A stretch of DNA of 64,000 bases from a phage. This document shows positions 3,092-39,933 of this stretch, piece by piece. The stretch is from sequence record PZ452594.1, one strand, 5' to 3'. Every line of letters starts with the position of its first letter. Positions within the stretch are counted from its first letter, which is position 1. The position numbers and the translations under genes are program-made. The notes under the pieces are model-generated. The model had not been told where the DNA came from and searched no databases. It saw nothing but the letters and a program-made list of their open reading frames with translations.

Positions 3092-3225
3092 ATATCAAGA
3101 ACCGTCATTGAAATGCAAAATAAAATTATTGAAATAAATCCATCTGGAGTGCTAAAGAACCCAATCCAACATGCTCTAGTGAATAGATAAAATGCAAGAA
3201 AAAGTATCACATATCCAAGAAATAT

Positions 3226-3262
3226 CATTATATCAAACTCCGTATAAAGCTAAAGGGCCGAA
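3226..3262 (-). promoter_or_regulatory. Putative MotA-dependent middle promoter upstream of gene 47
   Basis: Minus strand TAGCTTTA (mot-box-like) then 12 nt then TATAAT. Confidence 0.3.
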
Positions 3263-8510: not shown

Positions 8511-8981
8511 TTAATCATGTTTCCACACCCCATCGGTATTTGACCAAAGTCGCTGATTATCTGATCCTCGCCACAGCTTTTTAGTCGGAAGATTTTTCTC
8601 ATACTTCCCATCAATAATAACATCAACATATTTAAGCATTTCTAGTTGTTTAATATCTTCAAATTTATATCCTGTCCACAACCAAATGCTTTTATTGGGA
8701 TAAAGATTTTTTACTGTTTGAACCACAGAGTGAATCACGTCTCTGTTATCAGGATAAAGAGGGTCACCTCCGGTTATAGTTAATCCTTCTATATAATCAT
8801 TATTCAAACATTCAATCAATTGTTCTAGTGTTTCACCAGTAAATGGAATACCATTTCTAGCATTCCATGTTGATTTATTATAACACCCTTCGCATTTATG
8901 CAAACAACCTGTAACGAAAAGAACGACCCTGCAACCAGGGCCATTAACAAAATCGCAAGGATAAAATCTATCATAATTCAT
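8511..8981 (-). CDS. nrdG: Anaerobic ribonucleotide reductase activating protein (radical SAM)
   Basis: 156 aa; CLHKCEGC radical-SAM cluster motif. Confidence 0.9.
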   Translation of the reverse strand: MNYDRFYPCDFVNGPGCRVVLFVTGCLHKCEGCYNKSTWNARNGIPFTGETLEQLIECLNNDYIEGLTITGGDPLYPDNRDVIHSVVQTVKNLYPNKSIWLWTGYKFEDIKQLEMLKYVDVIIDGKYEKNLPTKKLWRGSDNQRLWSNTDGVWKHD

Positions 8982-30505: not shown

Positions 30506-30979
30506 TTATTTGAACGATTTAACGTACTGAATAGAACCTTTACTATTTACGAAAGCGATTTTACCATTTTTATTATACATGGTAGCAGTACGCTGATAGC
30601 CATAAGTTTGTTTACCAGATTGATAACCAACTAATGCGAAATTATCTTCGCCCATTTTATTCTGTTTAGCGCGAATGCGTTCATGACCATGTGCCATAAG
30701 AACCTTAGCATCACCAGTTGCAATGGATCTACGAGTTTTTTCATCTTCAACTGTATTAACAAAGTCGTCAAATGAATCAAATTTAGCATGAGATTTATTA
30801 TACAGTTTTCCATCTACTGCATAATTATATCCCTGTACATCCATCTCAACTTCTGTACCATCATCCAATACAGCAGTGATTTTTTGACCTTTTTTAAATT
30901 TCAAAAGATCAGTAAAAGATTCAGCAATAATTTGAGAATTAATAGCTGCTTCAGTGATAAATTCTTGATATGTTTTCAT
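30506..30979 (-). CDS. Internal (capsid-packaged) protein with capsid-targeting leader
   Basis: N-terminus MKTYQEFITEA matches T4 internal-protein CTS; adjacent to denV. Confidence 0.65.
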   Translation of the reverse strand: MKTYQEFITEAAINSQIIAESFTDLLKFKKGQKITAVLDDGTEVEMDVQGYNYAVDGKLYNKSHAKFDSFDDFVNTVEDEKTRRSIATGDAKVLMAHGHERIRAKQNKMGEDNFALVGYQSGKQTYGYQRTATMYNKNGKIAFVNSKGSIQYVKSFK

Positions 30980-34270: not shown

Positions 34271-34864
34271 TTATTTCAGAGAATTAATGTATTCCTGAAC
34301 ATCGGCAGAGGTAGTTTCAACCCCAGAAATATTGCCATTAAAGGTTTCAACTCGAGCAAGAGTATCTTCAATATCAACCTTAGTCAGTGCTGCAATTTCA
34401 ACTACATCATCAGCAGTACTAATTCCGAGGGCATTCGCGGCGCGAGTTTCACGGATATATTCCAATTTAACTGCAAGTTCTTGGCGAGCATCATCTAACT
34501 CAACTACTTTCTTGGCGATTTCAATTCGCATTTCAGCATAACCATCAGCTTTAGTAGTCAACTGCTCAGCTGTTCGACGATATAGTAAACCGAGTTTAGC
34601 ATGCATTGTTACATCTTGACCTTCAGAAAGAAGCTTGCGAATTTCACGCTCTTTTGATTCGGCCTGCTTATTCTTTTCGACAATAAGTTCACGAATACGC
34701 TTTTCTTCATTAATAGATTTAACAGAAGCAGTTTTTAGATCTTTAATCTTATCAAGTAGTTTTGCTGCTGCAGCAGTATACTGCTCTTCAACAGATAGAT
34801 TTTTAGCCATAGCAGAACCAAGTTTAGTGCGAATAAACTCAACAATTTTCTTCAGCATGTTCAT
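34271..34864 (-). CDS. Hypothetical coiled-coil protein (197 aa)
   Basis: Long helical/charged sequence; weak resemblance to PspA-type proteins by eye only. Confidence 0.5.
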
Positions 34865-35861: not shown

Positions 35862-35893
35862 TACCAAAAAGCTCCAACCGAAAGGTTGGAGCT
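35862..35893 (-). terminator. Rho-independent terminator
   Basis: AGCTCCAACC-TTTC-GGTTGGAGCT then TTTTTGG on minus strand. Confidence 0.6.
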
Positions 35894-35900
35894 AAGAATG

Positions 35901-36362
35901 TTATTTGATTTGTTTAGCAGACCAAATGCGGTCTTTGATGATTTTTTGGAGGTCTTCAACATACTCTAGGTCATGAGCATGTGGATTATCTTTGAAACTA
36001 TGAGCTCGCGCAAGTTTCTGGCCTTCGGTCTTAATTATCAAAAGTTCTTTAAGAATTGCTTCATACCTAGAGATAATTCCTTTAGCAATATTTTTTTCTT
36101 GTGCTGCTTTAGGGTCAGCCTTAGGAGCAGGTTTACCAGAAGGTTTTTCGAAAGCCGCACCAGTAGCAACCAGGCTTTTCCAGGCGGTGGTAACATAGTT
36201 ACCCACAAAGCCTTCAGCTCTCATATCGTCATAGAACTTGTACCGAGATTCGTCAGAAGCATCTTTATAAGAATATTTACCAGCTTTAATAGCAGCAGTT
36301 GCTACAGCGCGAACATCTGAAGCGGATGCTTCGGTCATTAAAAATTGAGCATAAGTTTTCAT
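35901..36362 (-). CDS. Candidate capsid-targeted (internal) protein, 153 aa
   Basis: N-terminus MKTYAQFLMTEA resembles internal-protein CTS MKTYQEFIAE; TATAAATA late promoter 29 nt upstream. Confidence 0.5.
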   Translation of the reverse strand: MKTYAQFLMTEASASDVRAVATAAIKAGKYSYKDASDESRYKFYDDMRAEGFVGNYVTTAWKSLVATGAAFEKPSGKPAPKADPKAAQEKNIAKGIISRYEAILKELLIIKTEGQKLARAHSFKDNPHAHDLEYVEDLQKIIKDRIWSAKQIK

Positions 36363-36390
36363 TGTTATTTCCTGTGTTAATTAACTCATC

Positions 36391-36398
36391 TATTTATA
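36391..36398 (-). promoter_or_regulatory. Late promoter (TATAAATA)
   Basis: Minus-strand TATAAATA upstream of ORF 35901-36362. Confidence 0.5.
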
Positions 36399-36429
36399 CC
36401 AAAAAAGCCCCAACCTTTCGGTCGGGGCT
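36397..36429 (-). terminator. Rho-independent terminator ending the tRNA/stable-RNA transcription unit
   Basis: AGCCCCGACC-GAAA-GGTTGGGGCT then TTTTTT on minus strand. Confidence 0.6.
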
Positions 36430-36825: not shown

Positions 36826-37491
36826 TTAAAATTTCATTTTTCGACCTTTAAACCATCCTTCTGGAATTGGGTCAGTTTTCTTAATACGTTTAGAAACTTT
36901 TTCATCTAATGAATGAATCCACATCATACCAAATTGGGAATTCTTTTCACCTTTCTGGTGATTATTTTTAGCGTGAATTTCTTTCATTTTATTAATAGTT
37001 TCAAGAGTATGATGCTTATTTAAAAATCTGCTATTATTTAAAAATTTTTCCTTGTATTCAGGAGTTGACCATAAACGTTTAAATACATTTGAACCATTTT
37101 GACGATATTTTTCTTGAAGTAAAATATCATTTTTAAAACGTGACTTAAACGATTTAGCTCCTTTTAAACTAGCGTCTTTCTTCTGATTTAGCATCTCAGG
37201 AATATTTATATGATCCCATCCGCCTTCACCGCCAAGTTTTAAATTATACACATCTGGTCTATTTAAAAACTCTTCTGTGACAATATTTTTCTCGGCTTCA
37301 AGCATAGATTCTTTATCATCAAAATATTCTAATATTTCTTTAGAAAAATTTTCTATACCATACCTGTCTTGGGCTCTTTTTAATAATTTACCAGAACCCA
37401 TATATCCATCATCTAAATTTTCGGTAGAATGCACACCAATATAAATTTTATTATTAATTTTATTTGTTATTTTATAAAGATAAAAATGCAT
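36826..37491 (-). CDS. segB: GIY-YIG homing endonuclease (SegB-like) within tRNA cluster
   Basis: 221 aa from MHFYLYKITN; GIY-YIG motif YLYKITN...IYIGV...YMGSG; ORF-track N-extension overlaps a tRNA. Confidence 0.8.
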   Translation of the reverse strand: MHFYLYKITNKINNKIYIGVHSTENLDDGYMGSGKLLKRAQDRYGIENFSKEILEYFDDKESMLEAEKNIVTEEFLNRPDVYNLKLGGEGGWDHINIPEMLNQKKDASLKGAKSFKSRFKNDILLQEKYRQNGSNVFKRLWSTPEYKEKFLNNSRFLNKHHTLETINKMKEIHAKNNHQKGEKNSQFGMMWIHSLDEKVSKRIKKTDPIPEGWFKGRKMKF

Positions 37492-39699: not shown

Positions 39700-39933
39700 T
39701 TATTTTTTACGAAAAATTGATTTATATTTATCAGCCCATTTCTCAATGACTTTTGCCGGGCCATAGATAACAAAGTAATCGCCAAACTCTTCACCACCGA
39801 GTTGACCGAAATCATCTAATGCATCACGAAGAACTCCATGAGGCATTTCACCCATTTTATCTTTCTTGCCAGTGTAAATAAACTCAACTTTTACATCAGC
39901 AGTTTCAGCAATAAATTCTTGATACGTTTTCAT
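39700..39933 (-). CDS. ipI: Internal protein I-like capsid-packaged protein (variant)
   Basis: N-terminus MKTYQEFIAE (exact T4 CTS) from ATG at 39933; mature part unlike T4 IPI as recalled. Confidence 0.65.
   Translation of the reverse strand: MKTYQEFIAETADVKVEFIYTGKKDKMGEMPHGVLRDALDDFGQLGGEEFGDYFVIYGPAKVIEKWADKYKSIFRKK

Follow-up and report, generated by a model that had tools for sequence, protein, structure and literature searches.

A candidate T4-type internal head protein encoded between rnaC and e.8 of an RB27-like Tequatrovirus

We analysed a stretch of phage DNA of 64,000 nucleotides (record PZ452594.1, here called the window) and found that the minus-strand ORF at 35901-36362 fairly likely codes for an internal head protein of T4 type that had gone unlabelled; its family, PHROG 2280, is a probable new family of such proteins. 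An earlier note on this DNA had proposed a third packaged or injected protein at this position. The leader, the late transcription unit, the conservation of the leader throughout the family and the detection of a homolog in a virion proteome support that proposal, while the M-T-E end of the leader, the unspecific nature of the proteome and the failure of searches to find an informative relative of the mature part weaken it. Overall, we consider the protein likely to be packaged.

The gene, its signals and its locus

The earlier note had described the ORF without naming its strand. The ORF proved to be real and to lie on the minus strand, with 153 codons for a protein of 153 aa that starts with MKTYAQFLMTEASASD (first residues MKTYAQFLMTE). 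The antisense ORF at 35973-36320 was rejected as unsupported, because all homology was found on the minus strand. The features of the gene, in the direction of transcription, were the following.

36406..36429, minus strand: upstream terminator hairpin with T-run (terminator scan; alignment with T4 rnaC/rnaD and 3' trailer)
36391..36398, minus strand: T4-type late promoter box TATAAATA (direct reading; 28 nt between box and ATG)
36368..36373, minus strand: Shine-Dalgarno AGGAAA, 5 nt from the ATG (sequence reading)
36330..36362, minus strand: capsid-targeting-like leader, codons 1-11, MKTYAQFLMTE, with a putative prohead-protease cut after Glu11
36156..36329, minus strand: mature N-terminal domain, aa 12-69, three helices (AlphaFold2 and family alignment)
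36093..36155, minus strand: Lys/Pro/Ala-rich linker, aa 70-90, AFEKPSGKPAPKADPKAAQEK, predicted to be disordered (low pLDDT)
35904..36092, minus strand: C-terminal helical hairpin, aa 91-153, strongly diverged in Klebsiella phage lineages
35901..35903, minus strand: stop codon
35870..35893, minus strand: downstream terminator hairpin with T-run, the right repeat copy, followed by GGTATCTAGGCC

The terminators previously placed on both sides of the gene were recovered as hairpins with T-runs, at 36429-36406 upstream and 35893-35870 downstream, and the scan found three sites of this type on the minus strand of the region against 1.0 expected. The upstream hairpin terminates the tRNA/rnaD/rnaC unit and also forms the left one of the two repeats that flank the cassette described below. 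The late promoter was likewise present as the earlier note had it, apart from a difference of one nucleotide in its distance (28 nt to the ATG, 29 nt in the note): the box TATAAATA lies at 36398..36391 on the minus strand, in intergenic DNA and immediately after the terminator. Its count in the AT-rich window was not significant (12 found, 9.85 expected), and enrichment of the motif was therefore dropped as a promoter statistic; the promoter call is instead supported by position and conservation. At related loci, TATAAATA was found 34-48 nt before the start codon in 10 of 13, including Klebsiella phages with diverged flanks, and the other three carried AATAAATA (two loci) or, farther upstream, CATAAATA (one locus). 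Two metagenomic relatives with 30-45 % protein identity had GATAAATA and CATAAATA (xATAAATA) about 35 nt upstream, adjoining tRNA genes. As read from these signals, the gene forms a single-gene late transcription unit, composed of terminator, TATAAATA, Shine-Dalgarno, ORF and terminator, and appears to share the late expression of the head genes.

The minus strand carries, in order, 57B, an ip gene, tRNA.4-tRNA.2, the tRNA cluster with a GIY-YIG segB-like ORF, rnaD, rnaC and ORF 35901-36362, followed by e.8 to e.1, e, denV and Ip4; the e-to-tRNA interval named in the earlier note can thus be narrowed to the site precisely between rnaC and e.8. In T4 the rnaC-e.8 spacer is only 284 bp (L002 ~8625-8908) and contains one terminator hairpin followed by GGTATCTAAGCC, and T6 has the same spacing. 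In the alignment with T4, the window presented a hairpin, GGTATAAATAG, the ORF, a second, near-identical hairpin and then GGTATCTAGGCC, and this last junction is the one that follows the single hairpin of T4, indicating a one-gene cassette of ~536 bp with a copy of the terminator at either end. The two hairpins (35870-35893 and 36406-36429) are each followed by TTTTTGGTAT. The single hairpin and missing gene of T4 and T6 look like the result of recombination between the two repeats, with gain or loss of the gene.

Several other observations were made in this interval. In public assemblies, the chimeric ORFs P0009, P0010, P0015 and P0007 fuse parts of the gene to a tRNA.3-like protein, NudE or the downstream gene, which points to frequent deletions, and ValerieMcCarty03 contains such a deletion scar. 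The GIY-YIG (segB-like) homing-endonuclease ORF (36826-37491, minus strand) lies between tRNA-Arg and tRNA-Tyr; since it is absent from RB27, the window is RB27-like and is not RB27 itself. The window also has denV between e and Ip4, where RB27 has none. Directly upstream of homologs outside Tequatrovirus there is a conserved stretch of ~45 nt (..cctgagcc[ag][ag]aggtgcgcg..gg.cgaatatg; L014 ~2850-2905, L019 ~3195-3238, L020 ~690-738), possibly the 3' portion of a small RNA comparable to rnaC. The e.6 homolog (34271-34864, minus strand) encodes a strongly helical protein of 197 aa that has no Pfam match and whose conservation extends to Klebsiella phages; in Yersinia phage fD1, the counterpart Gp137 is marked as particle-associated.

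The leader and its cleavage site

The likeness to the capsid-targeting sequence MKTYQEFIAE that the earlier note had seen amounts to 5 identical residues of 10 without gaps, with conservative changes at some others. The window has 596 ATG-ORFs with 40 aa or more, and in their ranking by similarity to MKTYQEFIAE, ORF 35901-36362 came third, after the two internal proteins. Of 1478 ORFs taken from eight T4-like loci, 20 fitted a relaxed leader pattern, namely 16 internal proteins (by annotation or by orthology), three members of PHROG 2280 and one other. The last is a 128 aa protein of Klebsiella phage vB_Kpn_P545 (Marfavirus; L013 14387-14773, MKFNEFVTSGKPNEADNY) with the Pfam domain DUF5856, perhaps a further unrecognised capsid-targeted protein or else a false positive.

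Alignment of homologs at 30-98 % identity showed that they retain M-x-x-[YFK]-x-[EQD]-[FI]-[LV]...E immediately ahead of the conserved domain. Leaders ending in (L/I)-x-E were MKSYAQFLNEVVLNE/A, MKTYNEFLNESVLTE/A, MKSYAEFLTE/Q, MKFKEFLAE/A, MITFNDILAE/G, MLKFNEFLAE/G and MISFNEFVDGNLITE/S (the slash marks the junction), with MKTYNEFLMTE/A and MLEYSEFLKELFCE/A as further homolog leaders, and the cleavage junctions of homologs read VLNE/A, VLTE/A, FLTE/Q, FLAE/A, ILAE/G and LITE/S. Residues F7 and L8 were nearly invariant in the family and equalled core residues in conservation. Every variant has a Glu ahead of the conserved domain, and nearly all junctions are of the canonical (L/I)-x-E form; the non-canonical ones were M-T-E, in the window protein and P0004, and F-C-E, in P0013. 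The junction of the window allele, L-M-T-E/A, has Met at P3 instead of Leu or Ile, and its leader is one residue longer.

We found no precedent of a documented gp21 cut at M-x-E. The one candidate examined, ValerieMcCarty04 gp119 (MKTYQEFLNESRLATVGVMTE/S), was rejected: occurrence counts imply a virion peptide spanning LATVGVMTESVGSNLLK, so that gp119 appears to be cleaved at L-N-E instead and gives no M-T-E precedent. The length of the leader is no objection, because the leader of T4 IPI has 19 residues (MKTFKEFTSTTTPVSTITE/A). In Alt, the prohead protease cuts after Glu at ITE-6 and LTE-619, and multiple propeptide cuts are common (PMC5694885).

In the PHROG search, the best match after the protein's own family was phrog_7857, 'internal virion protein', aligned from residue 1 and confined to residues 1-43, with E = 0.0043 for a homolog and a weak E = 0.16 for the window protein. 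The specificity and rank of the pattern match, its persistence in diverged homologs and the position of phrog_7857 as the next PHROG match make a convincing case that the leader is more than a chance match, and that the protein probably carries the N-terminal capsid-targeting sequence of internal proteins.

Family, mature protein and comparison with known internal proteins

RB27_136 of phage RB27 matches the ORF 35901-36362 protein at 100 % identity, as do proteins from four further Tequatroviruses. With tblastn the protein was found in 512 phage records, comprising Tequatroviruses at 72-100 % identity and Klebsiella phages that match over the N-terminal half; the hosts of the Tequatrovirus carriers were Escherichia, Shigella, Yersinia, Salmonella, Citrobacter and Serratia. 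A Klebsiella homolog as query added phages of Kosakonia, Hafnia, Enterobacter and Serratia. Searching 1.84 billion representative proteins with a profile gave 11 matches, including three full-length relatives at 30-45 % identity. The only full-length PHROG match was PHROG 2280, annotated as 'unknown function', and no Pfam or NCBIfam family model matched the protein. Among the entries examined, the source names were 'hypothetical protein' or similar, with the single exception of UniRef A0AAU8BA37, the homolog of Klebsiella phage KPKp, which its depositor named 'Internal head protein'. Phage AR1 and the BASEL Tequatrovirus Bas42 AndreasVesalius also carry the gene. A text search of the literature for RB32ORF133c found no mention.

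The gene was absent from T2, T4, T6, ValerieMcCarty03 and some or many Jiaodaviruses, and a near-identity DNA search with the Mineola gene found it in 24 records, neither ValerieMcCarty phage among them. From this distribution it appears to be an accessory gene, non-essential and variably present in close relatives. The candidate had been called novel in the earlier note; the gene itself is common and already forms PHROG 2280, and what is new is the reading as an internal protein. It was probably missed in classical internal-protein work because T2, T4 and T6 lack it, and for the same reason published plating data are uninformative about it.

Two other genes of the window had been listed as bearing the leader. 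The one at 30506-30979 was borne out: it starts MKTYQEFITE and encodes Ip4 (PHROG 3155, 'internal virion protein'). For the gene at 39700-39933, described as ipI-like, the start MKTYQEFIAE held, but the product belongs to PHROG 8111 and is not a homolog of T4 IPI. This gene, on the minus strand, encodes a protein of 77 aa whose start is identical to that of a 77 aa ORF of T6 (L018 6012-6245).

We then compared the protein with T4 IPI, IPII and IPIII and with Ip4-Ip13 of other T-even phages, the capsid-targeting-sequence proteins of Mullaney & Black (1996) and Repoila et al. (1994), as cited in PMC12373910 and PMC9391042; finding ip genes by their signal sequence is an idea that dates from 1994, as cited in PMC12373910. 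The protein resembles this series in its MKTY..F-type leader ending in Glu and followed by Ala, in small size, late signal, patchy accessory distribution and location in the plastic region from e to 57B; a homolog is listed in a virion proteome. Unlike the named Ip families, it has a mature part without sequence similarity to them, a separate PHROG and no Pfam family, and the leader of the window variant is one residue longer and ends in M-T-E. Unlike the ipI or ipII/ipIII loci, the gene occupies a third site, rnaC-e.8, with its own promoter and terminator, and PHROG 2280 differs from the Ips in being conserved over several genera, including Klebsiella, Kosakonia and Serratia phages. No homology of the mature polypeptide was found to IPI, IPII, IPIII, Ip4/DUF7412 or PHROGs 3155, 8111, 7857, 4363 and 2667, placing the protein, as far as sequence comparison tells, outside every named Ip sequence family.

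The closest comparison within the window is Ip4 (DUF7412, PF24183), with 157 aa and a pI of 8.9 against 153 aa and a pI of 9.3 for the ORF 35901-36362 protein. The two have the same type of leader, homologs of both are marked as particle-associated in fD1, and no homology was detected between them outside the leader. Unlike ORF 35901-36362, Ip4 directly follows denV and, within 70 nt, lacks its own promoter. A second comparison is Bas37_0260, a capsid-targeted McrBC inhibitor (bioRxiv 10.1101/2025.11.20.689424), which is likewise small, was uncharacterised and recognised only by its N-terminal packaging signal, and is absent from T4. Bas37_0260 is a proved anti-restriction factor and a model for what ORF 35901-36362 may encode, although it sits at the ipI locus and its function was shown genetically.

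Without the leader, the mature form would have 142 residues, 15.7 kDa and a pI of 9.4, and resembles Ip4 in size and charge. Two AlphaFold2 runs (pLDDT 73 and 76.5) gave the same layout, with an N-terminal domain of three helices (residues 14-26, 37-49 and 55-67; pLDDT >80), a linker of low pLDDT at about residues 70-83 (<50 at residues 80-82) and a C-terminal hairpin of long helices (residues 84-120 and 127-150), so that the mature protein is predicted to be all-helical and basic. Within the family, conservation is highest in the N-terminal domain (AGKYSYKD..SDESRF.F.RDMKAEGF..AWKS in the alignment), which is ~60 % identical in Klebsiella phage homologs. In the linker, composition is kept and sequence is not, with K/P/A-rich versions in each lineage (KPSGKPAPKADPK, KPKPGAAKPKAAKK, AKPKPAKAEPKK and PAKKAAKAPPAKAAKPEAK), and the hairpin is strongly diverged in the Klebsiella lineages, where a bridging homolog shows that the domain is the same.

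The structure prediction and profile search proposed in the earlier note yielded no relative of known function. Searches of Pfam, NCBIfam and PDB sequence profiles gave no informative relative of the mature part, and Foldseek against viral structures matched only the protein's own family. A match of ~40 residues to the C-terminal tail of streptavidin (AWKS..G..F.K.KP.AA, NAWKSTLVGHDTFTKVKPSAAS; residues ~55-93, window ~36084-36200; E = 0.018 against PDB and 0.0005 against NCBIfam) is probably due to chance, because the region is predicted to be helical and the match is far below the family cut-off. A weak match to an 869 aa repeat protein, P0019 (E = 4e-4), was also judged to be chance.

The basic character of the mature protein raises the question of whether it would be packaged to serve the DNA and not to counter a defence, using its basic linker to neutralise or condense DNA in the head, to aid ejection or to cover the DNA as it enters. 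The pI of 9.4 and a K/P/A-rich segment that is present in every lineage, conserved in composition and predicted to be disordered are consistent with such a role, as is solid-state NMR of T4, in which lysines of the internal proteins touch DNA phosphates (as reviewed in PMC3012670); in addition, PHROG 2280 is more conserved and more widespread across genera than the hypervariable ip genes. However, T2, T4, T6 and many Jiaodaviruses dispense with the gene, Pfam and PDB profile searches detected no DNA-binding domain, and all four small capsid-targeted proteins characterised so far are specific enzyme inhibitors and not DNA packers. We regard a purely DNA-serving role as unlikely. A broader reading, to which we give little credence, would make PHROG 2280 the internal-protein family with the broadest conservation among enterobacterial T4-like phages (Tequatrovirus, Jiaodavirus, Marfavirus and phages of Kosakonia and Serratia), a modular protein that enters with the DNA and shields it or disables a defence other than the type IV restriction enzymes targeted by Ip1, Ip2, Ip3 and Bas37_0260; its modules would be the leader, the three-helix domain, a histone-H1-like K/P/A linker and a lineage-specific helical hairpin.

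Packaging and possible function

The homolog in Yersinia phage fD1 (HE956711), g140, encodes a protein of 157 aa that is ~78 % identical and occupies the same position. LC-MS/MS of purified virions placed its product, Gp140, among the particle-associated proteins at the strict threshold (PMC8309999 Table S3; data in ProteomeXchange PXD026812), together with Gp129, the Ip4 homolog, and Gp146, of ipI type, but not with the products of the neighbours g138 and g139 (PMC8309999). The same list contains 113 of 277 gene products (41 %), including DenV, lysozyme e and NudE, and the particles were purified by ultracentrifugation only (PMC8309999). Because the list is this unspecific, the detection of Gp140 raises the odds of packaging only about two- to threefold, and it concerns the homolog and not the window protein itself. 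Two further sources were set aside: the virion proteome of a Klebsiella Jiaodavirus (PMC13119998) has no bearing, as ValerieMcCarty03 and ValerieMcCarty04 lack the gene, and the paper on fPS-2/-65/-90 contains no proteomics.

It is against these data that a late cytoplasmic protein that stays out of the particle has to be weighed, such as an assembly, lysis-timing or RNA-related factor whose leader-like N-terminus would be a remnant without function or would serve efficient initiation of translation. The window variant agrees with the consensus leader at just 5 of 10 positions and has the non-canonical M-T-E end, the fD1 proteome also 'detected' clearly non-structural proteins, and many late genes are non-structural. 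On the other hand, the leader pattern hardly occurs outside the internal proteins, g138 and g139 went undetected in the same proteome, and the leader is kept at ~30 % identity, mostly as L/I-x-E followed by Ala, Gly or Ser, a persistence not expected of a remnant. Taken together, these points make an unpackaged protein rather improbable. A minor component of the prohead core or scaffold, loaded by the leader, cut up by gp21 and expelled like gp67/gp68 with nothing injected, would account for the leader, the late expression and a long helical hairpin recalling scaffold-like proteins, and further L/I-x-E triplets lie inside the protein (e.g. L-K-E 104-106 and L-E-Y 132-134), but it is very improbable given that homolog peptides were found in mature fD1 particles, that the gene is accessory where core components are conserved, and that internal L-x-E triplets arise by chance in any helical protein.

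If the product is an internal head protein, as we favour, it would be made late in infection and dock through its leader onto the scaffolding core of the prohead, where the gp21 prohead protease would remove the leader after Glu11 (in the 157 aa variants, after Glu10 and/or Glu15). For fD1 Gp140, the expected N-terminal peptide would be ASSTEIQAVAK after a cut at LNE-15 and AVLNEASSTEIQAVAK after a cut at LNE-10, and SYTQFLNEAVLNEASSTEIQAVAK would mark the unprocessed form. The resulting basic (pI 9.4), all-helical protein of 142 residues and 15.7 kDa would be packed with the DNA and enter the next host cell along with it. After delivery it might inhibit type IV restriction, by analogy with Ip1, Ip2, Ip3 and Bas37_0260, all four of the characterised cases; the GmrSD enzyme that is inhibited differs between Ip1, Ip2 and Ip3 (PMC12373910; PMC9391042). 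The anti-defence effector suggested by the earlier note, or an anti-restriction role in particular, is a tentative proposal. Nothing in the mature sequence or fold indicates an inhibitor, and the protein, fairly conserved among Tequatroviruses (72-100 % identity), varies less than might be supposed of an arms-race effector.

Injected internal proteins act before phage genes are expressed and can thereby disarm defences that meet the incoming DNA, and the four characterised cases, all of them specific inhibitors of type IV restriction, help to set host range. PHROG 2280 is common in phages under development as therapeutic or biocontrol agents for E. coli, Shigella, Yersinia and Klebsiella. If the protein is not packaged, the leader motif alone would be insufficient as a predictor of internal proteins. 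If it is packaged, it would provide a second natural variant of the leader with which cargo could be brought into T4 heads, and a ready candidate for a new anti-defence factor.
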